12,362 nt of DNA from an uncultured Deinococcales bacterium (GTDB lineage Bacteria; Deinococcota; Deinococci; Deinococcales; JAAFIG01), in assembly GCA_964247135.1 (NCBI GenBank), contig CAXTTL010000143.1, positions 1-12,362 on the forward strand, read 5' to 3'. The notes beneath the pieces are model-generated. The model ran no database searches. It worked only from the letters and a program-made list of their open reading frames with translations, and was not told the origin of the DNA. Position numbers and translations under genes: made by a program. Each line of letters begins with the position of its first letter. Position 1 is the stretch's first letter. Shown piece by piece: positions 1-12,316 of the stretch.

Positions 1-1493
1 TGCTCGCGGTTGAAGGTCGTGCGGTACAACTCGAGCAATCCGAGGGCGTAAAAGGCGTAATCCTCGAGCATCCCGTCGATTTTGGAAATTCCGTTTTTAT
101 GGGTGTGCAGCAGGCGTTCATTTTTGAACAATTCGCGTTTGACAAACGAAACGTTGTCCTCAGCAACCATCAAATAGTCTGCCCGTTCAGTATTGACGAC
201 TCGGGCGGCAAGGGCAAAGGCTCTCAACATCAAGCCATTCCATGATGTCAAGATTTTGTCGTCTAAACTTGGTTTGACGCGTTTTTCACGGACTTCAAAA
301 AGTTTTTGGCGACTCCAAGCCAGTGCCTTGCTGACCTCGCTCGGCTCGAGGTCGAGTTGTGAGGCAATCATTTCATTGGACATTGCCCGAGTCAGCACGT
401 TACGGTGCTCCCAATTGCCGTGTTCGGTCACGCCGTAAGCCAGTTCAAACAACCTCGAGTCATCGCCCAGAACGCTGCGAATTTCGGCTTGACTCCAGAC
501 GAAGAACTTGCCTTCGACGCCTTCAGAGTCGGCATCTTGGGCGCTGTAAAATCCGCCGCTCGGGTCGGTCATTTCGCAGATCACATACCACAGCGTTTCT
601 TCGGCGATGCGAGAATACTCGAGATTATTTGTGATTTGAAAACCGTGAAGGTATGCCACAATCAGTTGCGCGTTGTCGTAGAGCATCTTTTCAAAATGTG
701 GCACCAGCCAGCGTTCGTCGGTGCTGTAACGCGCAAAACCGCCGCCGATCTGGTCGTACATCCCGCCCTTCGCCATGCCGTTTAAGCTGACCCTCAGCAT
801 CTCGAGGGCATTCGGGTCTTTGGTGCGGCGATGGTATTGCGCCAGAAACTCGAGCGTGCCAGGGTTGGGAAATTTGGGCGCACTGCCAAAACCGCCGTAT
901 TGGGGGTCAAAGTTTCCGCGCATGGTTTCAAAGGCTTGCTCGAGCACGGCAACGTTGATTTCTGGCGCGGGTTTGATGCGCTCGAGCTTTTGCATATGGC
1001 TGGTCAGGTCGTTGGCATTTTGCGTTATGTCGTCTCGGCGGTTTTTCCAGGTGTCAGACAGGCTTTGCAGTACCCTCGGAAAGCCTGGGCGACCGTAGCG
1101 GTCTTCGGGCGGGAAATAGGTACCGCCGTAAAATGGTTTGCCGTCAGAGGTCATGAACACGGTCATGGGCCAGCCGCCCTGTCCGGTCATGACTTGCACG
1201 GCATTCATGTAAACGCTGTCCACGTCTGGGCGCTCTTCGCGGTCAACCTTGATGCAGACAAAATGCTGGTTCATCAGCGCGGCGATGCTCGGGTTTTCAA
1301 AACTTTCGCGTTCCATGACATGACACCAGTGACAGGCGCTGTAACCTACAGACAGCAAAATCGGCACGTCTCGGGTTCTGGCGCTCTCAAATGCCGCCGT
1401 CCCCCAGGGCAACCAGTGGACTGGATTGTAGGCGTGCTGCAATAAATACGGGCTGGTTTCGTGGATCAGGGCATTGGCAGGGTGGTCGCTCAC
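1..1493 (-). CDS. Thioredoxin domain-containing protein, YyaL/SPATA20 (DUF255 + alpha/alpha-barrel) family; 3' end runs off the window
   Basis: Manual minus-strand translation from GTG at 1493: [31 protein letters not shown]...[21 protein letters not shown]...[12 protein letters not shown]...[10 protein letters not shown]...GGTYFPP, later [29 protein letters not shown] and [17 protein letters not shown]. These are hallmark YyaL motifs. The 5' and 3' ends were checked to be in the same frame. It is absent from the ORF track because no stop lies in the window. Confidence 0.95.
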
Positions 1494-1499
1494 ACTTTA

Positions 1500-1505
1500 A
1501 GGCTA
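1500..1505 (-). promoter_or_regulatory. -10 box (TAGCCT) 6 nt upstream of the yyaL-like GTG; probable leaderless promoter
   Basis: Minus strand reads ggTAGCCTtaaagtGTG with no Shine-Dalgarno. TANNNT adjacent to the start codon is typical of Deinococcus-Thermus leaderless genes. Confidence 0.6.
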
Positions 1506-1601
1506 CCTGTTTTTGCGAGTGTAATTTGTGCGCTGGCTTGCTCGGGTTTTGCACAGAAAATGACCTGCGCAATATCTTGCCCCAATTAATCTCGAATTTA
1601 T

Positions 1602-1610
1602 TGCTAGAAT
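1602..1610 (+). promoter_or_regulatory. Extended -10 (TGcTAGAAT) 7 nt upstream of ATG 1618; probable leaderless promoter
   Basis: Sequence reads tTGcTAGAATaaattcaATG with no SD. Confidence 0.65.
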
Positions 1611-1617
1611 AAATTCA

Positions 1618-2214
1618 ATGTTACCTCTCGAGCGTTTTCACCATGCGGTTAGCACTTTTCTGGCTTCGGGGGACGCAGCCTTCAGCCGCCAGGCGCTGCT
1701 CGCCACGCTCGATATCGAAGCCATGACCGTGGCTTGCAAAGCGCTGGCAAGTTTGCTCCCGACGGGTGAAAATTTGCTGCTTTTGGGCATCAACGAACCA
1801 GTGCTGTGCTTGACCATCGCCAATGCGCTCAAATGTCCTTTTGTCATGGTTGGCGATTTGGACTTGATCAGTTTTGACGATGGCGAAATTCCAGAATTTG
1901 CGGCTCGAGACGATCTGTTGCAACTGGCATTTCATGAGCGCACCTTGGCGGTGGCAAAAACCGCGATTCCAAAAGGCTCGAATGTGATTGTTTTCGACGA
2001 ATTCCTCGAGCTTGGCACCGAATCGCTGGCGTTGGTGCATTTGGCGGCAAAGGCTGGGGCAAAGGTCTTGGCGGTGGCGGCATTGACCGAAAAAACCCAT
2101 TTGGGAGCGCGTTCCAGGTTGCAAGTTCAGAATGTGGGCGTGATCTCCTTGGTGCAAATTGCCAAGTCTGGCGATCAGTTGATTCTCGAGCAGCGTTCCA
2201 ACGAGCATTTTTAG
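1618..2214 (+). CDS. Type I phosphoribosyltransferase-fold protein (Xpt/Apt/PurR-like), divergent active site
   Basis: 198 aa. IPKGSNVIVFDEFLELGTESLALVHLAAKAGAKVLAVAALTEK aligns by eye with the Xpt-type VLIIDDFLANG...GA.V.G....EK region. IANALKCPFVMV matches the A..L.VP.V segment. Confidence 0.7.
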   Translation: MLPLERFHHAVSTFLASGDAAFSRQALLATLDIEAMTVACKALASLLPTGENLLLLGINEPVLCLTIANALKCPFVMVGDLDLISFDDGEIPEFAARDDLLQLAFHERTLAVAKTAIPKGSNVIVFDEFLELGTESLALVHLAAKAGAKVLAVAALTEKTHLGARSRLQVQNVGVISLVQIAKSGDQLILEQRSNEHF

Positions 2215-2351
2215 CCGATCAAACGGTTGTCCAAACCAGTGTTTTGCCGTTTTTGATGCGATTTTCTCTGCCGTGCCAAGTTTGAACAAGGTTTTTCTCA
2301 GAAGGCGTTAACATTGGGTTAAAGTGTCATTTAGCCTAAAGGTTTTCTGAA

Positions 2352-2381
2352 TTGCATTGGGAAGTGTGTTTGCTTTAGTCT
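2352..2381 (+). promoter_or_regulatory. Candidate sigma70-type promoter of the four-gene operon
   Basis: TTGCAT (2352-2357), 18 nt spacer, TAGTCT (2376-2381) in an AT-rich intergenic region. SD GAGGTG lies at 2448-2453 before ATG 2462. Confidence 0.35.
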
Positions 2382-2461
2382 AACCTTTGGTGATTGCTTT
2401 TGGGATTGTAAGTTTTTTGAATCGTTTCTCGAGTTAGGGTCTTTAGTGAGGTGAGTGAAAG

Positions 2462-3481
2462 ATGGCAAATGAACAAAAAGCATTCGAGATCAGCAAAGGG
2501 GCGTTGCTGCTGCCGCCATTGCCAATCGATGCGCCGATCTTCAAAGGTCTCTCCAGCGCCCTGATTCGCTGGGACATGCTCGAGTCCGACATTTCCTCGA
2601 GGGCAAATTTCAGCGGTTTTGCGCTGGTCGAATCACCACTTCTGACGGCTCGAGCCTATTTTCTGGACTCGAAATTCGTTGGCGCTTTTGCGTTCGGCGA
2701 GGGCAAGCAAGCCAAACCGCTGACCCGCGAAACGCTGATCTCGAGTTACAGCACCCGCGACACCAATATCAGTTTGTACACCCTGGACCGCTATATCGTC
2801 GCCATGCTCTCCAACGCCAGCACCTGGATTCTCGAGTTGGAACGCACCGTGCCTCAGGCTTCATTTAACGCCCTGTTCTCGCAACTTGGGGCGCAACGCC
2901 ACACGGGGCAATTGGTGGTGCTCGATTTTGATTGGCGCGGCGTGATCACCATGATGGAGGGGCAACCGATCCTGACCAGTTACGAATCGGGCACGGTCAC
3001 GCTTTATCAACACGAGGCGCTGACCCGAATTGCGATTGAAGCCGAAGACGCAGGCGTCCAACTTGGGGTTTACGGCAAGGGTGAATTTGCCTTGCTCGAT
3101 CAGAACGCCATTCTCAACGAAGGCAGTTTTGAGGAAGTCGTGCAGACCTGGGCGGAAATCCTCTCCTTCTGCGAGGCTCGCACCGATGCGGCTCGAGGGA
3201 AAATGACCTTTGACACCCACTGGCGAGCCGCCAGTTTGTCGCTGGTTGAACGTTATCCCGAACTTGACCCGTTCTTAGATGAGGTCAAATTTGCCGGCAG
3301 TAAGTTATCGATGAAACGCCCAAGTCCAAGCGCTTTTGAAGCCTTGATCGCCGCCTATTTGGAAACCATGAAACGCTTGGGGGTCAATCCTGGCGCGTTG
3401 TACCCACTGCTGATGCAAATTCGTGACAAGCACCTCAAAATTTGGCGGGCTGCGGGTCTCGAGGTGATCTGCCCATTTTAA
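2462..3481 (+). CDS. Hypothetical protein with two DUF4388/PATAN-like repeats and a helical C-terminal domain
   Basis: 339 aa with a good SD. Two segments show the helix-(S/T)G-beta-beta-G pattern of DUF4388: ISSRANFSGFALVES...RAYFLDSKFVGA and LFSQLGAQRHTGQLVV...GVITMMEGQPILTSY. The C-terminus contains W...YPELDPF. Family call is by eye. Confidence 0.6.
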   Translation: MANEQKAFEISKGALLLPPLPIDAPIFKGLSSALIRWDMLESDISSRANFSGFALVESPLLTARAYFLDSKFVGAFAFGEGKQAKPLTRETLISSYSTRDTNISLYTLDRYIVAMLSNASTWILELERTVPQASFNALFSQLGAQRHTGQLVVLDFDWRGVITMMEGQPILTSYESGTVTLYQHEALTRIAIEAEDAGVQLGVYGKGEFALLDQNAILNEGSFEEVVQTWAEILSFCEARTDAARGKMTFDTHWRAASLSLVERYPELDPFLDEVKFAGSKLSMKRPSPSAFEALIAAYLETMKRLGVNPGALYPLLMQIRDKHLKIWRAAGLEVICPF

Positions 3482-3572
3482 AGTTTATTGCCATCCATTT
3501 TGGACTTGAAACGTTCCAGACTCAAGCCTCTTTCATTGTTTTAAGCAGCTCGTTGTGGTTTTGGGAGTTCGC

Positions 3573-4409
3573 ATGAACGGTCTTCAGGGATCGCTAGGAA
3601 AAGAGCAGTTGTTCAGCCTGCTCTCCTATTTAAAACTGACCACCTCGACGGGTCGGCTCGAGGTGATTTACGGTTCGGAAACCGCCGCCATTTACGTTCA
3701 AAACGGTGAGGTGGTCCATGCCGAATCGGGCGTCTTGCAGGGCGAGTATGCGGTCAAACGCATTTCGGGCTGGGCTGGGGGAAGGTTTCAATTCCATTCT
3801 GGCGAAATCAGCCCAAAATCGAGCATCAGCGACACGCTCGAGGGGCTGGCGTTGTCCGTTGCGGTGGCGATAGACGAAAAGCGCTCCAACGACGACTTTG
3901 GCATTGACTTGGACCGCGTGGTGCGCCTCGCGTCCAAAAACGCCGGTGAGGTCACCTTGAGCGGCGACGATTTGATGTTGCTGCCAAAACTCGGTGGCAC
4001 CATTTCACTGCGCAGGGCTGGGCTAGAGCTGGGTTGGGCGGAGGCGAGATTGCGCTCTGTGGTGGCTTCGCTCGACGCCCGTCAGATGCTCGAGGCGGTG
4101 AATGTCAATCAGCCAGCGCGAAATGCGACCAATTCGGGGGTCACCAGTTCAGGAGTCAACCAGGGCATTTCGACGATTGACCCGCGTTTCACCGCCGAGT
4201 TACGACAGAGCTATTCCAAAAGCGTTGGACCTGCCGCCGAATATATCTTTGATGATGTCTGCAACGACCTCAAGATTAACCCTGCCAGCTTGCCTGCCGC
4301 ACAATTTTCAGATTTTCTTCGCGCTCTGGCGGGCGCCGTCGATGACAGCAACGCTCGAGACCGTTTTGTTCAAGCCCTGACCGAACTTCGTGCCAAGTAC
4401 CGTATCTAA
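3573..4409 (+). CDS. DUF4388 (PATAN-like) domain protein with central wHTH-like and C-terminal helical domain
   Basis: ATG 3573 follows SD GGGAG (3563-3567) and is preferred over GTG 3555. The N-terminus LQGSL...LFSLLSYL....STGRLEV....AIYVQNGEVVHA....QGEYAV..I.GW.GGRFQF is the canonical DUF4388 pattern. LLPKLGGTISLRRAGLELGWAEARLRSVVASL is HTH-like. The C-terminal ELRQSYSKSVGPAAEYIFDD...FLRALA forms a helical module. Confidence 0.85.
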   Translation: MNGLQGSLGKEQLFSLLSYLKLTTSTGRLEVIYGSETAAIYVQNGEVVHAESGVLQGEYAVKRISGWAGGRFQFHSGEISPKSSISDTLEGLALSVAVAIDEKRSNDDFGIDLDRVVRLASKNAGEVTLSGDDLMLLPKLGGTISLRRAGLELGWAEARLRSVVASLDARQMLEAVNVNQPARNATNSGVTSSGVNQGISTIDPRFTAELRQSYSKSVGPAAEYIFDDVCNDLKINPASLPAAQFSDFLRALAGAVDDSNARDRFVQALTELRAKYRI

Positions 4410-4451
4410 GCTAAAACCTTATTCAGTCCCGCTCGCGCTGGGAGGCAAACC

Positions 4452-6212
4452 GTGGCAAACCCATACAGCATTCATCTGGTCGAACCCTTAAGTCCCGAGG
4501 TGGCACAACGTGTCGCCAATGAAACCGCCTCTCAATTGGGTGGCACACCCGACAAGCTCGCACAACTCCTGACCCGAAATTCAGGCTCGAGAATCGCCAG
4601 GGCTTCGAGCGCCGCCCAGGCGGATCGGGTCGCCGGTATCTTGCGCAAAGCCGGTGTCACGGTGCAGGTGGTCGATCCCGAAGCCATCGAAAATGTCGTC
4701 CCTGAAACTCAAAACCTCGAGCCTGCCGCCACTGGAATTCCTCAGAGCCAAATGGTCTCAATTCCAACAATTTCACCCTCCGATCATCAGGTCAATGTTG
4801 AAGTCAGTGCCGTTCCTGAAACACCAATCAGCCATTATGATGTGAACGCCGGCTCGAGCAGTTCCTCGAGCGGCGGCACACCCATCGTTCCAGATGAAAT
4901 TATTCCAGTCGATGAAGCGCCTTACGTGCCACCCGCGACCACCCAAAACCCTCCATCCATGACTGATCTTTTCCCAGTCATGAACTCTTCGATTGCGCCA
5001 CCAAATGATCCATTTGCCACGGACAGCAAGGACTTGTTCAATCCCGATCCAGTCTCAAATAGCCCGACGCCAGCCAGCGATCCTTTCGCCTCGCCAAGCG
5101 CCGAGTCTTATCAGCAAAATGCCAACAAGCCATTTGCCCCGCCAGCTCGAGGCTTATCAAATGCTCCAGCCAACGATCCGTTTGGGGCACCCGCCAACAA
5201 TCCTTTCGCCGAGCCTGCCCGAAGTGATCCGTTTGCTGCGCCAAAAAATGATCCTTTCGCCGCACCGGCAAACAATCCGTTCGCAGCCTCGAGCGCCCAA
5301 GACCCCTTTGCCCCAGCCGCAGGCATGGTCGGGTCCAACGTAGACACGCCGCCGGCATTTGACCCGTTCGCAGCCTCGCAAGCCCCCGCCGCCGTCAGTG
5401 AATTGCCGGCACAAGCCCTGAAAGCCCAAAATCGTGGGACGCGCCGCACCAGCGTTCGCGCCCAGTTGCTCAGTTCGATTTTGCTGCCGATCTTGCTGGT
5501 CGGTCTGGGCATTGTCTTGTTCTTGGGTTATCAACTCAACATCATTTACCGTGACCAACTGAAAACCCGAGCCATTCAAGCTTCGGCGACGATTGCCGCC
5601 CAACAAGAACCCCTTTTTGCCAGGCTGCCAGACCCAGCCGCGTTAAAGACCATCAACGACGGTTCGCAAGCCTTTTTCAAATTGATTCCAGAAGCCGAAT
5701 TGACCTTTTTTGAAAGCGGCGATCCGAAGCTGGTCACCATGACGCAACTCTCAACCCAGACCAGGACCCCGCTGTCGCCCGAAATCAAACAAGAGATTTC
5801 ACAAAAAATGAATGTGATTCAAGGTGGCTCGGGTGCTTTCAATGTGGCTGGAGTGGATTACATTGGCGCGATTACCACCATGAAAACACCCGATGGTCAA
5901 ACGCTTGGCGATATTCACGTGGCGTTCAACACCGCCCAAATTGCCACCAACGTTTTCAACGCCATCGTCCCTTTGCTGCTGGCTCTTTTGATCGTGACCT
6001 TGTTTGCGATTGTGCTCGCCAACACCCTCGCCAGTCGTCTGGTACGTCCGATCACCGCCGCCGCCGATCAAGCCAACCGCATCAGCCTGGGCGATCTTGA
6101 TCGCATCGTCGAAATTCAGACCAACGACGAAATTGGTGATTTGCTCGGCTCGCTCGAGCGAATGCGTGTTTCACTCAAATCAGTGATCGGACGACTTCGC
6201 CGTGACCGTTAA
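4452..6212 (+). CDS. Membrane HAMP-domain protein: small N-terminal alpha/beta domain, Pro-rich DPF-repeat linker, TM-extracytoplasmic sensor-TM-HAMP, no output domain
   Basis: GTG with SD GGAGG (4441-4445). TM1 about 5466-5531, TM2 about 5961-6032. HAMP: LVRPITAAADQANRISLGDLDRIVEIQTNDEIGDLLGSLERMRVSL, with a stop about 10 residues later. Confidence 0.88.
   Translation: MANPYSIHLVEPLSPEVAQRVANETASQLGGTPDKLAQLLTRNSGSRIARASSAAQADRVAGILRKAGVTVQVVDPEAIENVVPETQNLEPAATGIPQSQMVSIPTISPSDHQVNVEVSAVPETPISHYDVNAGSSSSSSGGTPIVPDEIIPVDEAPYVPPATTQNPPSMTDLFPVMNSSIAPPNDPFATDSKDLFNPDPVSNSPTPASDPFASPSAESYQQNANKPFAPPARGLSNAPANDPFGAPANNPFAEPARSDPFAAPKNDPFAAPANNPFAASSAQDPFAPAAGMVGSNVDTPPAFDPFAASQAPAAVSELPAQALKAQNRGTRRTSVRAQLLSSILLPILLVGLGIVLFLGYQLNIIYRDQLKTRAIQASATIAAQQEPLFARLPDPAALKTINDGSQAFFKLIPEAELTFFESGDPKLVTMTQLSTQTRTPLSPEIKQEISQKMNVIQGGSGAFNVAGVDYIGAITTMKTPDGQTLGDIHVAFNTAQIATNVFNAIVPLLLALLIVTLFAIVLANTLASRLVRPITAAADQANRISLGDLDRIVEIQTNDEIGDLLGSLERMRVSLKSVIGRLRRDR
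5007..5372 (+). repeat. Degenerate coding repeat: ten xPF(A/G) motifs, core 8-9 aa tandem unit at 5166-5288
   Basis: Core reads PANDPFGA/PANNPFAE/PARSDPFAA/PKNDPFAA/PANNPFAA. The total is 7 DPF, 2 NPF and 1 KPF. Synonymous codons differ between units. Confidence 0.85.
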
Positions 6213-7752
6213 ACCCAGTATCCTCAAACGTTACGGCTCGAGCTTGTTGTTGATATTGGTACTGGCAGGCGTGGCGTTGGCTGACCCAAGCGGTTCAGCC
6301 ACCGGCGGCATCAAAGACGTTCCCGCCGAAGTTGCGGGGCAACCCAGCATCAACGAGATTGCGCAAAGTGTCGGTCAATCCCGTGTTGCCCTGAATATTC
6401 TCTGGACCATGATCGCCGGTTTTATGGTCATGTTCATGCAGGCAGGGTTTAGCTTGGTCGAAATGGGTTTCGTTCGTACCAAAAATGCCGCTAACACGGC
6501 TTTAAGCGTGCTTTTAACGTATGGCATCGGTGTTTTAGGGTTTTTTGCAGTGGGTTTTGGTTTGCAAATGGGCGGTTCTGCGGGATTGTATCCGCAAATT
6601 GGTGGTACTGAAAATTTAAATCGCCTCATTGGCGTTGTGATCGATGGCAACACCTGGGGTTTTTTGGGTGGCAGAGGCTTTGGTTTGGCAGGTAATAGCT
6701 ACGATATTTCAACTTTTACCCTGTTCTTCTTTCAAAGCGTCTTTCTTGCCGCCGCCTTGGCGATTCCCACCGGCGCACTCGCCGAACGTATCAAAACCAG
6801 CGCTTTGGTGATTTATGCCATTGTCGGCAGCGTGTTGATTTACCCAGTGTTTGCCAATTGGGCTTGGGGGGGCGGCTGGCTGGCAACCCTCGGCGTCAAC
6901 CTGGGACTCGGACACGGTTACGTCGATTTTGCGGGTTCTGGCGTGGTTCACTTAACCGGCGGCGTGATGGCGGTCATGGGCATTTTGGTGCTTGGACCGC
7001 GCATCGGCAAATACGGACGAGACGGCAGTATTCGCAGTTTCAAAGCCCATAATTTGCCCTTGGGCATATTGGGTACTTTTATTTTGGCTTTTGGCTGGTT
7101 TGGTTTTAACGCCGGTTCGACGCTGGCAGCCACCGACGTGCGATTTGCCGTGGTTGCCGTTTCAGCCATGCTCTCGAGCACCGCCGGCATGGTGACCGCC
7201 TTGGCAATCACTTGGGCATCGAGCGGTAAAGTCGATGTCGGAGCCATTTGCAACGGAATGCTGGCTGGACTTGCCGCCAACACGGCTTGCGGCGCATTTA
7301 TTGGTGCGCCCGCCTCTGTGGTGGTCGGCGCGGTCGCCGCAATTGTTTACGTCTTCGGCGCTCAATTTATCGAAACCCGACTGAAACTCGATGATCCCGT
7401 CGGCGCCGTTGCCGTGCACGGCTTGGCAGGCTTGTGGGGTGTTATCAGCGTCGGGATTTTTTCGGATGGCACCTATGGCAACGGCATTAACGGCGTCACC
7501 GGTGGCGTCACCGGCATGTTGTACGGCGATTACAATCAAATGCTCGCGCAATTGATTGGGGTGGTTGCCAATCTATTGTGGGTTGGTCTGACCAGTTTCG
7601 CCTTGTTTCGTCTGATTGATGCCGTTATTGGAATACGCGTGAAACCAAATTTTGAAATCGAAGGTTTGGACTATACAGAATTGCTCGCGCCCGCTTACGA
7701 AACTGCCGACGAAGCGACCGAAGAGCCACTGGCGCTGCCTTGGTCAAATTGA
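6202..7752 (+). CDS. amt: Ammonium transporter (Amt/Mep family) with N-terminal signal peptide
   Basis: Motifs FMQAGF..VE.G..R.KNA, FFQSVF, GALAER, W.WGGGWL, DFAGSGVVHLTGG, GWFGFNAGS, DDPVGAVAVHG and IRV....EIEGLD are present. The twin His, Phe gate and W/S recruitment-site residues are retained. The GTG start overlaps the upstream gene end by 11 nt. Confidence 0.96.
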   Translation: MTVKPSILKRYGSSLLLILVLAGVALADPSGSATGGIKDVPAEVAGQPSINEIAQSVGQSRVALNILWTMIAGFMVMFMQAGFSLVEMGFVRTKNAANTALSVLLTYGIGVLGFFAVGFGLQMGGSAGLYPQIGGTENLNRLIGVVIDGNTWGFLGGRGFGLAGNSYDISTFTLFFFQSVFLAAALAIPTGALAERIKTSALVIYAIVGSVLIYPVFANWAWGGGWLATLGVNLGLGHGYVDFAGSGVVHLTGGVMAVMGILVLGPRIGKYGRDGSIRSFKAHNLPLGILGTFILAFGWFGFNAGSTLAATDVRFAVVAVSAMLSSTAGMVTALAITWASSGKVDVGAICNGMLAGLAANTACGAFIGAPASVVVGAVAAIVYVFGAQFIETRLKLDDPVGAVAVHGLAGLWGVISVGIFSDGTYGNGINGVTGGVTGMLYGDYNQMLAQLIGVVANLLWVGLTSFALFRLIDAVIGIRVKPNFEIEGLDYTELLAPAYETADEATEEPLALPWSN

Positions 7753-7780
7753 AAATAGTCTAAAATAAGAGTTTTTGATG

Positions 7781-7815
7781 CTGACGCGAAACCATTTCGT
7801 GTCAGTTTTTATTTT
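7781..7815 (+). terminator. Intrinsic terminator after amt
   Basis: CTGACGCGAAA-cca-TTTCGTGTCAG (10-11 bp stem, one G-U pair) followed by TTTTTATTTT, 28 nt after the amt stop. Confidence 0.8.
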
Positions 7816-7885
7816 GTTTTCATTTCTAAAAAGTTCAATGGTACAAACCTCAAAAATGACATGTTTTTTTGTAAAGTAACATTGG

Positions 7886-7973
7886 TTCGGGTTAAAACCA
7901 TTTACAGAAGTGTGCAGTTTAAAGCTGTCTTTGACAATGATTTTGAGAAAACGTTGATCCATTTTAACCCGAA
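7886..7973. repeat. Perfect 12-bp inverted repeat, 64-nt spacer
   Basis: TTCGGGTTAAAA (7886-7897) and TTTTAACCCGAA (7962-7973). Confidence 0.7.
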
Positions 7974-8231
7974 TTCTGAGTTGGACTAACCCAGAACCTC
8001 GAGGAAGATTCTCATCCCGAATTGACGTTAAAACAATTGGTAGTGGCAACAAACGTACAAGATATGCCAGGCTTAATTTCTATGAATCTCGAGTATTTGA
8101 AGCAATTACCGATTCAATTTAAAACTTTCCTTTATTTATTTTGTAATAAAAAGTAAAGAATTCGAGTAATACAGTATTTCTAGGTTCAACAATGGTTATT
8201 GAAATTTTTGTTGTGCCCACGGGAGATATGC

Positions 8232-9176
8232 ATGAAAAAATCGAACATTTTTGCCACCACTTTATTTGCAGCCCTCGTCTCGAGCGTCAGCGCTCAAAGC
8301 TTTCAAATCATGGCTCCCTGCACCGCCGGTTGCTCGTGGGACGTTCAAGCGCACGCCATTGCCGACACGCTCAAAGCCGAGGGTTTAGCCTCCTCGGTCG
8401 AGGTCTACAACCTTCCAGGGCAAGCGGGCGCTTTGGGCTTAGAGAAACTGATGAAATCGAGCGGTGACATGTTTCAATTGATGACGATGGGCGTCGGTAC
8501 GGTCGGTGGCACGCTGCTGAACAAAAGTCCGGTCAGCTTGCTCGACGCCACGCCAGTCGCCAGGCTCGCCGCCGATTTTGAAGTCTTGTACGTTTCAGAA
8601 AACTCGAGCATCAAATCGATTGGTGACTTAAAAAACGTGATCCTTTCTAAACCAGAATCGCTGACTTGGGGCGGCTCGAGCGCGGGTGGCACAAGTCACA
8701 TGATGGCAGGCATGATCGTCAACGCCTTTGGTGGCGACCCGAAAAAAATCAAATACGTCCCCTCGAGTGGAAACTTGCAGGCGGCAAACGCCGTGTCCAA
8801 CGGCGAACTCGGCATTGCCACGGGAAGTTACACGGTCTTAAACGAGCTGATTGCCGCCAAAAAAATTCGGACGCTCGGCATCAGCTCGAGGTACAAAGTT
8901 GCGGGTTTGGATATTCCCACCTTGATCGGGCAGGGTTTAAATGTTGAATTTGTCAATTGGCGCGGTGTAATGGCACCTCCAGGCTTGTCTGATCGTCAAC
9001 GTTCGCAATTACAGCGCCTGTTTGGGCGTATGGTTCGCAGTCAAACTTGGTTGGAACAAATCAAAGCCAACAAGTGGATCAACTATTATCAGGGTGCAGA
9101 GAAGTTTAGCGGTTTTCTGAATGAACAATATGGAACGGTTGGCTCTTTGTTGCGCAGCTTGGATATTTTAAAGTAA
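8232..9176 (+). CDS. tctC: Tripartite tricarboxylate transporter substrate-binding protein (TctC/Bug family)
   Basis: ATG 8232 follows SD GGGAG (8221-8225) and is preferred over TTG 8199. Signal peptide MKKSNIFATTLFAALVSSVSA-Q. Family motifs: IMAP...G..WD, V.N.PG..G..G, TPVARL..D, WGGSSAGGTSH, IPTL..QG......NWRGVMAPPG. Confidence 0.88.
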   Translation: MKKSNIFATTLFAALVSSVSAQSFQIMAPCTAGCSWDVQAHAIADTLKAEGLASSVEVYNLPGQAGALGLEKLMKSSGDMFQLMTMGVGTVGGTLLNKSPVSLLDATPVARLAADFEVLYVSENSSIKSIGDLKNVILSKPESLTWGGSSAGGTSHMMAGMIVNAFGGDPKKIKYVPSSGNLQAANAVSNGELGIATGSYTVLNELIAAKKIRTLGISSRYKVAGLDIPTLIGQGLNVEFVNWRGVMAPPGLSDRQRSQLQRLFGRMVRSQTWLEQIKANKWINYYQGAEKFSGFLNEQYGTVGSLLRSLDILK

Positions 9177-9202
9177 TTAAACAATGCTTTTGATTAAGCA
9201 AC

Positions 9203-9246
9203 AATCAAAAATAAGAAAGGAACGCCTTTTAAAAGCGTTCCTTTCT
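9203..9246 (-). terminator. Intrinsic terminator of thrS, probably bidirectional (also tctC)
   Basis: Perfect 12-bp stem AGAAAGGAACGC (9214-9225) / GCGTTCCTTTCT (9235-9246) between convergent genes. On the minus strand it is followed by TATTTTTGATT. Confidence 0.85.
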
Positions 9247-9258
9247 GCGTTCAAAAAC

Positions 9259-11217
9259 TTAATTGCGTTGTTCGGCTCGGGTTTGAAGTTCGAGGATCAA
9301 ATCTGTTGTGCCCAGGATGCCTCGGTCACCTTTGCCGTGTTCGCGCACGCCAACCGAGTCGGCTGCCACTTCCTTGTCGCCAACCACCAAAATATATGGC
9401 ACTTTTTGCAGTTCGGCGCTGCGGATTTTGGCTTGCATCCGCTCCGAGGAATCATCGACCTCGACCCGCAATTTGGCGGCTTTCATGGTTTTTGCCAGAT
9501 CGTTGGCGTACTCGAGGTGACGGTCTGAGATCGGTACAATGATGGCTTGAACTGGCGCGAGCCAGACTGGAAAATTGCCCGCCGTGTGCTCGAGGTAGAG
9601 CGCAAAAAACCGGTCAAAACTGCCCATGATCGCACGGTGAATCACGACTGGCGTCTCTTTCTCGCCGCGCTCGTTGGTGAACTCGAGGTCAAAACGGCTC
9701 GGCACAATAAAGTCGAGTTGGTTGGTGGCAATCGATTCTTCCTTGCCGACCACGGTGCGCAGTTGAACATCGAGTTTTGGTCCGTAAAAGGTGGCTTCGC
9801 CGATGCCCTCGACGTAACTCGCACCCGTCTCCTCGAGTGCCGCGCGAATCGCGGCGATGCTTTCGTCCCACTGCGGTCCTGGCTCGCCAAATTTTTCGGG
9901 ATTGTTCTCAAAATCGGGCAGGGAGAGCCTGAACCAGTAATCAGAAATTCCAAAGTCGGTATAAACCTCTTTAAAGAGTTCGATTACCTTGATAAATTCG
10001 GCTTTGACTTGCGACTTGGAGCAGTAAATGTGCGCGTCATTTTGGGTAAAACCGCGAACCCGAGCCAAACCTGAAAGTGCGCCCGAAAGCTCGAAACGGT
10101 AGACCGTGCCAGCCTCGGCATAGCGCACGGGAAGGTCGCGGTAAGACTTTGGTCGAGCCGCAAAAATCATGTGGTGGTGCGGGCAGTTCATGGGTTTTAA
10201 ATAATAATTCTCGCCCTCAATCTCGATGGGGGCATACATGCCATCGCTGTAATAGGGCAAGTGACCGGACTTGTGATACAGCGCCTCTTTGGTGATGTGC
10301 GGCGAGATCACATAGTCGTATCCGTGTTCCTGTTCCTTTTGGAACATGTAATCCTCGAGGCGCTTCCTGACAAACGCGCCCTTGGGCAACCACAGCGGCA
10401 AACCCTGACCAACCTCGTCGGAAAAGGCGAACAAATCCAGTTCCTTGCCCAGCTTGCGGTGATCGCGCTTTTTGGCTTCCTCTTGCTGCCACAGGTAATG
10501 CTCGAGTTCCTGGGCGGTGTTGAACGCCACGCCGTAGACGCGTTGCAACATCGGATTTTTTTCCGAACCGCGCCAATACGCGCCGCTGGTGGCGGTCAGT
10601 TTAAAATGCGGCGGAATTAAACCCGTGCGCGGAATGTGCGGACCACGGCACAAATCGGTGAAATCTGCCTCCGAGCCTTGGCGGTAGAAGGTGATTGCTT
10701 CATTGTCGGGCAGCCCTTCGATCAATTCGGTCTTGTAACGGTCTTTGCCCTCAAACGTCGCCAGCGCCTGCGCCCGTGTGACTTCAAAGCGACTCAAGGG
10801 CAAATCTTTGGCAATAATTTCACGCATTTTGGCTTCGAGTTGCTCGAGTTCCTCAAGTTTCAGTGGTTCTGGCAAATCAAAATCGTAGTAAAAACCGTTC
10901 TCGATGACCGGACCGACACCCATTTTGATGCGGTCGCGGGCAAAACCTTTATTTTCGTACAACTCGAGGATCGCCTGCGCCATGACGTGCGCCAGCGTGT
11001 GCCGCGCCAGGTCAATCGCCTCGGCAGGTTTTTTGGTCGTGATGATTTCAAGCGTCGCGCCGTCGTGCAACGGTGTGAAAATATCGATCAGTTTGCCGTT
11101 GAGTTTTGCGCCAATCGCGTCTTTGGCGAGCCGAGGACCGATCAATGACGCGGCGTCAAAGGCATTCGCGCCGGCTGGAAGCTCGAGTTGCTTGCCGTCT
11201 GGAAGGGAAATAAACAT
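9259..11217 (-). CDS. thrS: Threonine--tRNA ligase
   Basis: 652 aa. TGS domain; editing motifs RHTLAHVMAQA and DLCRGPH; GAYWRG, RDHRKLGKELDLF, KPMNCPHH, FTQNDAH, FYGPKLD, IHRA, FPVWLAPVQ; anticodon-binding domain. SD GAGG at 11225-11228. Confidence 0.99.
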   Translation of the reverse strand: MFISLPDGKQLELPAGANAFDAASLIGPRLAKDAIGAKLNGKLIDIFTPLHDGATLEIITTKKPAEAIDLARHTLAHVMAQAILELYENKGFARDRIKMGVGPVIENGFYYDFDLPEPLKLEELEQLEAKMREIIAKDLPLSRFEVTRAQALATFEGKDRYKTELIEGLPDNEAITFYRQGSEADFTDLCRGPHIPRTGLIPPHFKLTATSGAYWRGSEKNPMLQRVYGVAFNTAQELEHYLWQQEEAKKRDHRKLGKELDLFAFSDEVGQGLPLWLPKGAFVRKRLEDYMFQKEQEHGYDYVISPHITKEALYHKSGHLPYYSDGMYAPIEIEGENYYLKPMNCPHHHMIFAARPKSYRDLPVRYAEAGTVYRFELSGALSGLARVRGFTQNDAHIYCSKSQVKAEFIKVIELFKEVYTDFGISDYWFRLSLPDFENNPEKFGEPGPQWDESIAAIRAALEETGASYVEGIGEATFYGPKLDVQLRTVVGKEESIATNQLDFIVPSRFDLEFTNERGEKETPVVIHRAIMGSFDRFFALYLEHTAGNFPVWLAPVQAIIVPISDRHLEYANDLAKTMKAAKLRVEVDDSSERMQAKIRSAELQKVPYILVVGDKEVAADSVGVREHGKGDRGILGTTDLILELQTRAEQRN

Positions 11218-11345
11218 GTGAAAACCTCAGTTTCTCGAGGGTGATTTGCTGCTGCTTGGGGTCAATATGTAGACCCAGACCGACATCTTTCAACACGCGC
11301 GAAATCAGACCCCCCAAGGGGTTCGCGTGGTGAATGCGGTCGTGC
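11218..11345 (-). promoter_or_regulatory. Candidate attenuator: alternative RNA pairings controlling the thrS SD
   Basis: SD hairpin CCTCG-agaaac-TGAGG followed by TTTT. Its 5' arm AAATCACCCTC (11237-11247) is also complementary to the leader stop region GGGGGT(CT)GATTT (11302-11314). Confidence 0.6.
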
Positions 11346-11370
11346 ACAAGAGGCTCGAGAGTTGTTTCAT
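11305..11370 (-). CDS. Putative Thr-rich leader peptide of thrS (MKQLSSLLCTTAFTTRTPWGV)
   Basis: ATG 11370 (alternative in-frame ATG 11397) to TGA 11305-11307. Five Thr codons lie within eight codons (ACG ACC GCA TTC ACC ACG CGA ACC). The ORF ends 87 nt upstream of thrS. Confidence 0.7.
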   Translation of the reverse strand: MKQLSSLLCTTAFTTRTPWGV

Positions 11371-11413
11371 GGTTTTTTTGAGGCACGGATACTTCATTCC
11401 GTGGCTTGATTGC

Positions 11414-11422
11414 AGTTTAGCA
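11414..11422 (-). promoter_or_regulatory. Extended -10 (TGcTAAACT) of the thrS leader transcript
   Basis: Minus strand reads gTGcTAAACTgcaatcaag, just upstream of the leader ORF. Confidence 0.55.
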
Positions 11423-11462
11423 CAAGCCGTCGTTTGGCTGAATCTGCCAAATGACGGCTTGT
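11422..11462. repeat. 17-bp near-perfect inverted repeat with 7-nt loop between divergent genes
   Basis: ACAAGCCGTCGTTTGGC-tgaatct-GCCAAATGACGGCTTGT, with one mismatch (G-T). Confidence 0.85.
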
Positions 11463-11504
11463 CGGGAACTTTCACGCGCCTTTGTCCGTATGATGTGACT
11501 GAGC

Positions 11505-12263
11505 ATGAATCCCAACAAATCCGCAAACAATCAAGCACAACCAATTGAACCACCCGAGCTTGAGGTATTCTCAAGCGATATGGCACGCCACCCGCACGCC
11601 GTAAAATCTGATCCGCTGGGCGCTCGAGGTCGTTTGATTTTTGGATTGCTGGTCGGTCTGACGGCAGGAACCATCAGTTTTTTCTCAGTCTCGAGTTCGG
11701 TTATTTTGAGTGTCATGATCGCCTGGGACGTCGGCACATTGTTTTTCTTGGGTTTGACGTGGCGGGTGATTTTTAAATCAAACGCAGACATGACCAAAGC
11801 CAGAGCCACCAGCGAAGACCCTGGGCGCTACGGGGTTTTTGTGATTGCCATCGGCTCGAGCCTGGTCAGTTTGTTCGCAGCGGTGTTTGTGCTGCACGGC
11901 AAAAAGGACATGGTCTCGGCGAATCTGGTCGGACTGCTGGATACCCTGGCGGTCGTCGCAGTCGTGCTTGCCTGGATCATGACGCATACCGCCTATGCCT
12001 TGCGTTACGCGCGGTTGTATTACAGTCCACGAAACGGCGATCCTGAAGCGGGTTTGAAATTTCCTGGCGATGAAGCCCCAGACGACCTGGATTTTGCCTA
12101 TTTTTCGTTTGTCTTGGGCATGGCATTTCAGGTGTCCGATGTTTCGATCACCTGCAAGCGCATTCGCAGGGCAGTCTTGTGGCACAGTTTGCAATCGTTT
12201 TTGTACAACACCGTCATCCTGGCGTTGTCGCTCAACTTGTTGTTCGGTTTGTTCAGCACTTGA
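11505..12263 (+). CDS. DUF1345 family integral membrane protein
   Basis: Several TM helices and the signature H..YALRYA..YY...GLKFPGDEAPD.LDFAYFSFVLGMAFQVSDVSIT...IRR.VL.HSL.SF.YNTVILAL.LN. The start is uncertain (11505 or 11580). TATGAT lies at 11489-11494. Confidence 0.88.
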   Translation: MNPNKSANNQAQPIEPPELEVFSSDMARHPHAVKSDPLGARGRLIFGLLVGLTAGTISFFSVSSSVILSVMIAWDVGTLFFLGLTWRVIFKSNADMTKARATSEDPGRYGVFVIAIGSSLVSLFAAVFVLHGKKDMVSANLVGLLDTLAVVAVVLAWIMTHTAYALRYARLYYSPRNGDPEAGLKFPGDEAPDDLDFAYFSFVLGMAFQVSDVSITCKRIRRAVLWHSLQSFLYNTVILALSLNLLFGLFST

Positions 12264-12316
12264 GAATCGTGGCTCGGCTCGAGGTGTGAATCAGTCTCTA
12301 GGCTTAAACTGATGCC

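Follow-up and report, generated by a model that had tools for sequence, protein, structure and literature searches.

CTCGAG, a HIP-like palindrome in large excess throughout the genomes of an uncultured Deinococcales family

The stretch of DNA analyzed here, referred to as the window, comprises 12,362 nucleotides of one contig from an uncultured Deinococcales bacterium. Its nine main ORFs include site-bearing genes on the plus and minus strands, and the CTCGAG sites, with the genes and spacers that hold them, are as follows.

30..12283, no strand: all 56 CTCGAG sites of the window, from counting, shuffles and frame assignment
3..1493, minus strand: DUF255/thioredoxin-like gene (PF03190, 262 bits), open at the window edge; nine sites, eight of them Leu-Glu
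2428..2433, no strand: intergenic site 5′ of a 339-aa ORF, kept in three of five congeners
4452..6212, plus strand: HAMP-domain gene; seven sites spread over the three frames, two of them (4853 and 4865) close together
7998..8093, no strand: intergenic pair (7998 and 8088) in the spacer between an ammonium transporter gene and a TctC-like gene, unalignable to the congeners
8199..9176, plus strand: TctC-like binding-protein gene; five sites, all xxC-TCG-AGx (Ser-Ser/Arg)
9259..11217, minus strand: threonyl-tRNA synthetase (ThrRS) gene, assigned by Pfam and orthologue alignment; nine sites, all Leu-Glu
11234..11359, no strand: intergenic sites 11234 (kept in four of five congeners) and 11354 (kept in all five), in the spacer of the divergent ThrRS and DUF1345 genes
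12278..12283, no strand: intergenic site 15 nt past the DUF1345 stop codon

The site at 12278 lies in the post-stop zone in which CTCGAG density doubles genome-wide.

A preliminary description had put the number of sites at about 56, against about 3 expected. An exact count over the whole window returned 56 (4.5/kb), with sites at 30, 63, 345 ... 11855 and 12278 just as it had listed them, and in 200 dinucleotide-preserving shuffles of the window the mean was 2.14 sites (sd 1.45, maximum 7), with none of the 200 reaching 56. GAGCTC is absent from the window, and GCTCGAGC occurs 8 times. Relative to the nine ORFs, 28 sites are read as CTC-GAG (Leu-Glu), 6 as xCT-CGA-Gxx and 16 as xxC-TCG-AGx, which agrees with the claim of sites in every codon phase and in genes on both strands. 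Six sites are intergenic: those at 2428, 7998, 8088, 11234 and 12278 had been named correctly, and the one at 11354 had been overlooked.

The genome from which the window derives (386 contigs, 84% complete) contains 33,925 copies of CTCGAG in 5.09 Mb, which is ∼6,660/Mb, a mean spacing of ∼150 bases, 4% of the DNA and 24.8 times expectation. CTCGAG is the most frequent hexamer of the genome, more than twofold ahead of all others. Each of the 297 contigs of at least 5 kb carries at least 2.56 sites/kb (median 6.8), so the enrichment is not an artefact of one contig. Nor does the frequency of the TCGA tetramer explain it: 33,925 of 54,610 TCGA (62%) sit within CTCGAG, and the 20,685 outside it are close to the zero-order expectation (overall observed/expected ratio for TCGA, 2.76). 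A maximal-order Markov model gives a ratio of just 1.24, which would favor an ordinary compositional origin, but the model is circular in this case, 88% of CTCGA pentamers being part of CTCGAG itself. Beyond the immediate neighbors of the word the flanks are uninformative and palindromic extension is absent, indicating that CTCGAG is not a repeat element; flank complementarity (0.21 to 0.30) is about that expected by chance. The flanks of the word lean slightly towards a 5′ G and a 3′ C, in non-coding DNA as well (35% versus 24% background). In the same genome GGCC occurs 380 times, many six-base palindromes have fewer than 20 copies and GAGCTC has none; the avoidance of GAGCTC, which goes with a SacI-like system, is the opposite of what is seen for CTCGAG.

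The view that protein coding is not the cause is borne out genome-wide. CTCGAG density is 7.5/kb in non-coding and 6.5/kb in coding DNA, and all three reading frames are used (17,257, 4,518 and 6,548 sites). When synonymous codons were shuffled within genes (10 replicates), 4,022 ± 52 sites resulted (maximum 4,106) compared to 28,240 observed, and shuffling of codon order gave 1,663; the excess thus survives both codon controls. The effect extends to the proteins. Leu-Glu pairs are written as CTCGAG in 76.6% of cases versus 4.9% from context-free codon use (log-odds 4.2), and the Leu-Glu dipeptide itself is 2.4-fold over-represented (22,451 observed versus 9,381 expected; Glu-Leu, 9,502). In the ThrRS alignment, 13 Leu-Glu dipeptides are present versus 4 to 7 in orthologues from outside the family, and at several site positions the outgroup proteins have RE, TE, LP, LD, ME, IE or CT/CS. 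The excess is one of a DNA word, present in every frame and between genes, and it prevails over codon preference and even over the amino-acid sequence. Neither codon usage nor amino-acid content nor TCGA frequency accounts for it.

Spacing between sites is nearly random (CV 0.96, variance/mean 1.12), and the only period seen in this genome of 386 contigs is 3 nt, together with a short-range depletion in which close pairs fall to ∼0.5-fold below 18 nt and ∼0.8-fold at 30 to 40 nt. Density reaches 13.6/kb within 20 nt downstream of stop codons, versus ∼6.5 elsewhere. The non-coding share of CTCGAG pairs is 29% at 7 to 16 nt apart versus 17% at 17 to 40 nt; paired copies after stops make terminator stems, and T runs follow the example stems. 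Spared are just a few genes that are low in GC and foreign in appearance, 15 of 1,984 genes of at least 900 bp being site-free (1.2 expected), with a mean GC of 0.40 versus 0.54.

Retention was analyzed for the window sites against five congeners at 82 to 83% nucleotide identity. The preliminary description had proposed comparing orthologous positions, and CTCGAG positions are indeed held far better than other hexamers: 77 to 82% are identical versus 34 to 40%, and all six genomes share 20 of 60 CTCGAG positions versus 49 of 1,172 for permuted words. Per base, site loss in these comparisons is 4 to 5 times slower than background. Local compensation for lost sites (38 of 162 versus 21.5 expected) is weak and confounded.

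The excess is genome-wide and also family-wide. All 19 genomes of this uncultured family that were searched are CTCGAG-rich (4,300 to 6,800 sites/Mb), in line with the HIP-like system that had been proposed for this lineage of Deinococcota. Across 151 genomes of the order abundance forms a gradient, with one family depleted in the word. In genus g9, CTCGAG equals the codon-matched control GAGCTC in number, and CTC and GAG are common codons in high-GC relatives; in another relative (G027), 2,645 of 3,131 sites are the octamer GC-TCGA-GC.

Three kinds of known system invite comparison at the level of the word. The uptake signals of Pasteurellaceae (USS) and Neisseriaceae (DUS) are over-represented in coding and non-coding DNA, shape peptides, occur as terminator-stem pairs and are rare in foreign DNA, and CTCGAG shares all of these features, including inverted pairs in transcription terminators. 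Known uptake words are 9 to 12 nt long, non-palindromic and present at ∼1/kb, with known receptors, whereas CTCGAG is a palindromic hexamer at 6.7/kb. Very-short-patch repair in Escherichia coli shifts CCWGG/CTWGG counts and thus also exemplifies a word-specific process that changes oligonucleotide counts genome-wide. However, its effect is small and needs Vsr plus a C5 methylase, while here the deamination neighbors CTTGAG/CTCAAG are not depleted (2,878 in the genome, ∼1.2 times expectation) and Vsr (PF03852), whose co-occurrence had been suggested, gave no match in the window's 84% complete genome. Unlike the host of an XhoI/PaeR7I-type restriction target, this host enriches CTCGAG instead of avoiding it; the XhoI-family nuclease model PF04555 had no match in the window's genome (G000) and was also silent in all 14 control genomes.

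The closest comparison is with HIP1. CTCGAG is the equivalent of this cyanobacterial word (GCGATCGC) in a different phylum, and a denser one. Both are short GC-rich palindromes, over-represented tens-fold, found in genes in all frames and in intergenic DNA and conserved beyond neutral expectation, and they have the same build if the preferred flanks of CTCGAG are included (GC-TCGA-GC here, GC-GATC-GC in HIP1). CTCGAG thus combines a palindrome in high copy number with dispersal without a longer repeat and, in the window, orthologous conservation. It differs in being a hexamer rather than an octamer, in its density (∼6,700/Mb versus 300 to 2,700/Mb for HIP1; PMC4390886) and in bringing a clear change of the proteome; moreover, a conserved cognate methylase was not found in this extreme family. 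HIP1 distribution is reported to be periodic at 10 to 90 kb (Xu et al. 2018). In some cyanobacterial lineages another palindrome replaces HIP1, and, as here, the trait is graded among relatives. For these alternate HIPs a matching methyltransferase is described whenever the word is common (Elhai 2015, PMC4390886), whereas for CTCGAG this holds in part of the order and not in this family. That paper mentions neither CTCGAG nor Deinococcus.

Methylases of the right specificity do exist in the phylum. The S3 table of Blow et al. (2016, PMC4752239) gives CTCGm6AG methylases for three cultured Deinococcota, Marinithermus hydrothermalis, Meiothermus chliarophilus and M. ruber. The enzymes, M.Mhy14884I, M.Mch9957IV and M.Mru1279II, are orphans for which no restriction partner is listed, so word and phylum are those of the present case, the difference being that this traceable enzyme family was not found here. 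From Nocardia and Rhodopseudomonas the same source describes m5C enzymes for CTCGAG that occur with Vsr; the main-text passages covered do not report genome-wide over-representation of CTCGAG. The matching gamma-class family occurs in 25 of the 151 genomes of the order, with CTCGAG-rich members in two other families. Its gene neighbors are housekeeping genes with no recognizable nuclease, and 24 of the 25 carriers have at least ∼1,000 CTCGAG/Mb, the exception (G072, from the depleted family) being a 26%-identical relative. It was found in none of the 19 genomes of this family, nor in g22 and g24, the other two genera of highest enrichment, and in genus g13 three of 10 genomes are equally enriched without it. 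Other candidates fare no better within the family: a PF01555 methylase had no match in the single-contig genome G011 and a PF00145 methylase none in G008, a 466-aa methylase is present in seven of 19 genomes, and a type I-like methylase is present in eight of 19 and also in depleted genera. No tested methyltransferase class is conserved across the family. The proposed methylase link has support in relatives only. These genomes are 57 to 94% complete and methylase specificity cannot be read from sequence, so that an unrecognized enzyme is possible; yet the same kind of search did pick up a restriction system conserved among 11 of the 19, which makes incompleteness alone a poor excuse for a missing methylase.

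In our reading, CTCGAG is a HIP-type word kept by word-specific drive. Judging from the sequences, we think that a bias in uptake or recombination is the most likely cause, with methyl-directed repair next. A lineage-wide, sequence-specific process would write and keep CTCGAG in any DNA resident long enough; quite possibly, although we hold this tentatively, it would be biased fixation (molecular drive) through a DNA-transaction system that favors CTCGAG-bearing DNA. Most likely, natural transformation and homologous recombination would favor DNA of the cell's own type, as recent work reports for HIP1 when methylated. The adenine methylation seen in cultured relatives may be the ancestral link of word and reader, and in this family the reader would see the bare word or rely on a methylase not recognized. 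The flank preference, being present in non-coding DNA too, fits a protein footprint slightly wider than six bases. Close-pair depletion, post-stop doubling and terminator stems are features in common with uptake signals, and the site-free low-GC genes suggest that foreign DNA gains CTCGAG slowly. Against uptake, a hexamer offers little specificity, the near-random spacing gives no strong sign of one site per fragment, and ∼80% positional conservation exceeds what a pure density signal needs; the gaps in the gamma-class methylase (this family, g22, g24 and three of 10 g13 genomes) argue against the link to methylation. We know of no uptake signal that is palindromic or as dense as CTCGAG is here, and to our knowledge Thermus and Deinococcus are described as taking up DNA without sequence specificity. 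ComEC and DprA were found in five of five family genomes tested; as control matches in 10 to 11 of 14 control genomes mark them as nearly universal, their presence is no more than compatible with a bias in uptake. For HIP1, sites are reported to lift transformation 7- to >100-fold, partly only if methylated (bioRxiv 10.1101/2024.09.10.611283), and abundance to co-vary with DNA-transfer genes (PMC13756078).

Less probable, but the strongest competitor, is methyl-directed biased repair as in Elhai's model for HIP1, in which an orphan methylase would mark CTCGAG and mismatches would be repaired towards the methylated parental version, so that sites would be shielded from loss and heteroduplex near-sites converted. 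Methylation of exactly this word in cultured relatives without a listed restriction enzyme (PMC4752239), a methylase confined, G072 apart, to CTCGAG-rich genomes and set among housekeeping genes, the methylases accompanying alternate HIPs (Elhai 2015, PMC4390886) and the slow loss of sites all fit it. The patchy methylases of the family (0/19, 7/19 and 8/19, with gaps for PF01555 and PF00145), the missing Vsr match and the undepleted deamination neighbors do not, and HIP1 conservation has been taken to argue for selection over biased repair (Xu et al. 2018).

Direct selection for a chromosomal role of each site, through binding of an abundant nucleoid or segregation protein or through replication timing like that of Dam/SeqA, is unlikely. 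Positional conservation and the G-CTCGAG-C flanks in non-coding DNA would suit it, a role in nucleoid structure is favored for HIP1 (Xu et al. 2018), and the Nocardia replication origin has CTCGAG clusters and an orphan methylase (Blow et al. 2016, PMC4752239). But ∼34,000 sites, ∼4% of the DNA and amino-acid changes in most proteins would be a very high cost, density is almost uniform and unclustered, spacing is near-random with a 3-nt period only, and no candidate protein was found.

More doubtful still is a self-mark for defense, whereby word-poor DNA would be attacked or degraded and resident DNA selected to carry CTCGAG, much as Chi shields a cell's DNA from RecBCD. The low-GC, foreign look of the few site-free genes and the extreme policing of other words in the genome (GAGCTC, GGCC and the rare palindromes) are consistent with it; against it, those site-free genes persist, no reader system was identified and a search for viruses bearing the signature of the family was unsuccessful. 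That no special process is at work, only base composition, codon usage, Leu-Glu-rich proteins, TCGA frequency, a dispersed repeat or an assembly artefact, is scarcely credible despite the Markov ratio and genus g9, and is ruled out by dinucleotide, synonymous-codon and codon-order shuffles that fall short 7- to 26-fold and by a non-coding density at least equal to the coding one, with the excess in all contigs and 19 independent assemblies.

Within word-specific drive, a route free of any methyltransferase, in which the bare hexamer would be read by a factor of uptake or recombination or else by an enzyme for word-specific gene conversion, is rather improbable. If true, such a reader would drive CTCGAG up to ∼4% of the genome, with thousands of codons and Leu-Glu positions rewritten, and CTCGAG in this family would be the densest self-propagating bacterial DNA word known and would show that a HIP can arise independently of methylation.

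An exact search of the window found 56 CTCGAG sites; the preliminary description had counted approximately 56, and the coordinates that it listed agree with ours. Dinucleotide-preserving shuffles of the window gave a mean of 2.14 sites and a maximum of 7, with none of the 200 shuffles reaching 56. Over the nine main Pfam-annotated ORFs, 28 sites are read as CTC-GAG (Leu-Glu), 6 as xCT-CGA-Gxx and 16 as xxC-TCG-AGx. Six sites are intergenic, five of which had already been recognized as such, while the one at 11354 had been overlooked:

Position 2428, intergenic CTCGAG
Position 7998, intergenic CTCGAG
Position 8088, intergenic CTCGAG
Position 11234, intergenic CTCGAG
Position 11354, intergenic CTCGAG
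Position 12278, intergenic CTCGAG

At the start of the window, nucleotides 1 to 117 match the end of contig C167 of the same genome (10640-10756) with 97% identity; these contigs are probably neighbors or have a terminal repeat in common.

The genome from which the window derives (G000; 5,091,702 bases, GC content 52.65%) is assembled in 386 contigs, of which the window is C143. It harbors 33,925 copies of CTCGAG, 24.8 times the 1,369 expected at zero order and amounting to 4% of all bases. CTCGAG is the most frequent hexamer of this genome, the runners-up overlap it, and the best non-overlapping hexamer has less than one-fifth of its count. All 297 contigs of at least 5 kb contain the word, at 2.56 to 10.5 copies per kb (median 6.8). 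Of the 54,610 TCGA tetramers, 33,925 (62%) lie inside CTCGAG; because the overall observed/expected (O/E) ratio of TCGA is 2.76, the remaining 20,685 are close to expectation. The maximal-order Markov ratio for CTCGAG is only 1.24, and we rejected it as a measure because 88% of CTCGA pentamers are part of CTCGAG, which makes the expectation circular, the word dominating its own sub-words. The flanks are uninformative except for a preceding G and a following C (39% in coding DNA; 35% in non-coding DNA, where the background is 24%). No palindromic extension was found and flank complementarity is at chance, which rules out that the sites are centers of longer hairpins. CTCGAG is thus iterated as a bare hexamer rather than as part of a repeat element.

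To separate coding from non-coding DNA we used 4,480 heuristic gene calls (longest non-overlapping ORFs of at least 100 aa), which put the density of CTCGAG at approximately 6.52 per kb inside genes and 7.50 per kb outside them. Within genes, the word occurs 17,257 times as CTC-GAG, 4,518 times as xCT-CGA-Gxx and 6,548 times as xxC-TCG-AGx. Against 28,240 sites observed, synonymous codon shuffles within genes left 4,022 ± 52 (10 replicates) and codon-order shuffles 1,663 ± 21 (5 replicates). Leu-Glu shows the largest dipeptide excess of the genome, with 22,451 occurrences versus 9,381 expected (2.4-fold); Glu-Leu occurs 9,502 times. Moreover, 76.6% of Leu-Glu pairs are spelled CTCGAG, where codon use in other contexts predicts 4.9%; the log-odds are 4.2. 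The effect can be followed in the window's threonyl-tRNA synthetase (ThrRS), in which all nine CTCGAG sites encode Leu-Glu. This protein contains 13 Leu-Glu pairs, compared to 4 to 7 in orthologues from outside the family, which often have RE, TE, LP, LD, ME, IE or CT/CS at the positions of the sites. The nearest ThrRS loci share 84 to 87% of their amino acids with it and carry the title "MAG: Deinococcales bacterium". The force behind CTCGAG is strong enough to alter protein sequences, which is relevant to phylogenetics, codon models and the recognition of horizontally transferred DNA in these genomes.

Conservation of the sites was analyzed in five genomes of the same genus that carry syntenic copies of the window at 82 to 83% nucleotide identity. 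Among aligned sites, 40/49, 44/54, 40/50, 40/52 and 42/53 (77 to 82%) are identical in the congeners, versus 34 to 40% of other hexamers in the same alignments. Sixty positions are covered in all six genomes and carry CTCGAG in one or more of them; at 20 of these, all six have it. The corresponding figure for the remaining 179 permutations of its letters is 49 of 1,172. Most variants differ from CTCGAG by a single transition, for example CTCGAA, CTTGAG, TTCGAG and CTCGGG. Lost sites may be compensated locally, as judged from 38 of 162 cases versus 21.5 expected, a count in which genome pairs are non-independent and which fast-evolving stretches confound.

The placement of sites in the genome is constrained at short range. 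Pairs 6 nt apart never occur, because GAGCTC would arise, and close pairs are depleted to approximately half below 18 nt and approximately 0.8 at 30 to 40 nt; the sole period in the spacing is 3 nt. In the 40 nt past stop codons the density is doubled, at 13.6 and then 10.5 per kb, and neighboring sites there often pair up as the two arms of a hairpin with a T run behind it. Between the TctC-like and ThrRS genes of the window, which converge, lies a 33-nt segment (9214-9246) that is 91% identical to its reverse complement and is probably a two-way terminator hairpin. Only 15 of 1,984 genes of at least 900 bp lack CTCGAG (1.2 expected), and their mean GC content is 0.40 versus 0.54. These long genes, on contigs C70, C4, C135, C13, C20, C115 and C1, are mostly of 26 to 36% GC and foreign-looking; the few at native GC resemble, by sequence, solute-binding or permease proteins.

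CTCGAG was counted in 151 genomes of the order, and GAGCTC, its two triplets reversed, served as codon-matched control. In the window's family, each of the 19 genomes contains approximately 4,300 to 6,800 copies of CTCGAG per Mb. In several genera of other families, most of them represented by genomes of 99% completeness, there are 1,400 to 3,400 per Mb and far fewer GAGCTC; the moderately enriched complete genomes are probably those of cultured species. In one genus (22 genomes) CTCGAG equals the control. Family f3 (36 genomes) is depleted, its main genus having 37 to 942 copies per 2- to 5-Mb genome, the opposite of the window's family; CTCGAG is therefore under opposite pressures within one order, which spans depletion in one family, moderate enrichment, and saturation in the window's family. 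In G027, a 3.0-Mb genome of another family, 2,645 of 3,131 sites are part of the octamer GCTCGAGC, which is HIP1-like in its form, GC-TCGA-GC.

The control word itself is avoided in the window's family. GAGCTC has 0 copies in the 5.09 Mb of G000 (approximately 1,370 expected), 0 in the window, and is nearly absent (0 to 25 copies) in 16 of the 19 family genomes. G000 encodes a methylase and nuclease pair, the nuclease being recognized by PF09566 with 29.7 bits (cut-off 19.3):

G000:C320:1061-2985 (locus L139), D12 adenine methylase gene overlapping a SacI-family nuclease gene

The nuclease was found in 11 of the 19 family genomes; those in which it was not found include G008, G010 and G015, precisely the three with relaxed avoidance (568, 161 and 114 copies of GAGCTC, respectively). 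The D12 methylase and SacI-family nuclease explain the avoidance of GAGCTC, and the pair served as positive control for the methylase-type search in the family. Given its SacI-family partner, the D12 enzyme was rejected as the cause of the CTCGAG excess, as it accounts for GAGCTC avoidance instead. Other palindromes are also shunned in G000: GGCC has 380 copies (O/E 0.02; 1 copy in the window), CTAG an O/E of 0.07, and GGGCCC, CGGCCG, AGGCCT, CGTACG, GGATCC and CCGCGG occur 1, 3, 4, 5, 7 and 11 times, respectively. This avoidance suggests that the lineage has long been exposed to many restriction systems and makes the single hyper-abundant CTCGAG stand out more.

Among viral contigs, at least 130 loci have three CTCGAG sites close together. 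The richest full virus records among the matches listed are the IMG/VR records G151 (behind L229; 107 CTCGAG, 0 GAGCTC) and G155 (behind L222; 258 CTCGAG). Both are complete, high-GC viruses in which CTCGAG, CGATCG, GTCGAC and TCGCGA all exceed expectation 6- to 13-fold and many other palindromes are lacking altogether. The last three of these enriched words, in excess by 6- to 11-fold, are avoided by the window's family, and no protein similarity of either virus to G000 was found; we therefore rejected them as viruses of this family.

Methyl-directed repair is a possible, though rather unlikely, source of the excess. Blow et al. 2016 (PMC4752239, S3 table) list active, experimentally shown CTCGm6AG methylases in three cultured Deinococcota species, Marinithermus hydrothermalis (Marky_0034; 94.6% of CTCGAG sites detected as methylated), Meiothermus chliarophilus (94.1%) and Meiothermus ruber (99.5%), with the cognate-enzyme column blank for all three; CTCGAG C5 enzymes accompanied by Vsr are given there for Nocardia and Rhodopseudomonas. 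A gamma-class methylase family (N6_Mtase + Eco57I + M_Eco57I_C) is present in G027 and in another genome, G019 (mutually 38% identical). It may be the one typed by Blow et al., with which the annotations, "Eco57I" and "type I methyltransferase subunit", are compatible. It occurs in 25 of the 151 genomes, namely 17/37 of one family, 7/10 of one enriched genus and one more, a match of only 26% identity in the depleted family. Its neighbors are housekeeping genes, for example dnaG, pyruvate kinase, amylase and sulfatase, and no nuclease family was recognized beside it. At the G027 locus (L121) the methylase gene adjoins dnaG, and just 2 CTCGAG sites lie in 6 kb. The gamma-class family was found in 0/19 genomes of the window's family and in no genome of two other strongly enriched genera, and the G027 and G019 enzymes had no tblastn match in G000 at E < 1e-5.

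Pfam searches of G000 revealed 4 to 5 PF01555 methylases with SPPY/SPPF motifs, 2 C5, 1 type I-like, 2 MmeI-like, one 1,499-aa fusion and one D12 enzyme; Vsr had no match. The XhoI nuclease model PF04555 had none either, but is uninformative, as it was equally silent in all controls. None of the methylase classes tested is conserved throughout the window's family. G011, a single-contig genome, and G015 lack PF01555; PF00145 is present in 18/19 genomes and missing in G008; a 466-aa enzyme occurs in 7/19, two of them with stop codons; and a 798-aa type I-like enzyme occurs in 8/19 and also in depleted genera. Each was rejected as the CTCGAG methylase. The most extreme family is without its relatives' methylase family, an argument that the mechanism may not depend essentially on methylation.

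The force is specific for the word and is exerted on DNA rather than on protein. It is strong (log-odds approximately 4), keeps sites in place, works family-wide and reaches almost all resident DNA. We tentatively favor biased fixation, in which a DNA-transaction system would prefer CTCGAG-bearing DNA, most likely in transformation and recombination. This reading is suggested by the absence of the relatives' methylase where the trait is strongest and by the depletion of close pairs and recruitment of copies into terminators, as in uptake signals. It is also suggested by HIP1 and, weakly, by ComEC and DprA, present in 5/5 family genomes tested. HIP1 is reported to be linked to transformation by experiment (bioRxiv 10.1101/2024.09.10.611283) and to DNA-transfer genes by phylogeny (PMC13756078). 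A chromosomal binding function of the sites is doubtful; in G000 no gap between sites exceeds 3 kb (mean 148 nt), counts per kb have a variance/mean ratio of 1.12, and regular spacing is ruled out, the gaps being near geometric (CV 0.96) with short-range depletion only. That the word is a self-mark in defence is improbable. Composition or artefact as the origin of the excess is refuted.

To our knowledge, HIP1 has been studied in cyanobacteria only and has stayed unexplained for three decades. CTCGAG behaves like a HIP and agrees with HIPs in three descriptive criteria. It is not HIP1, because word and phylum are different and the methylase that belongs to the criteria for HIPs was not found in the window's family. 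Full-text literature searches returned no report of CTCGAG over-representation in Deinococcota, the sole match combining CTCGAG and Deinococcus being m5C mapping in other organisms; Elhai 2015 (PMC4390886) mentions neither. CTCGAG is thus a second, independent and stronger HIP-type case in another phylum, which makes the competing ideas (repair directed by methylation, a role in nucleoid structure, and a signal for transformation or uptake) testable by comparison.
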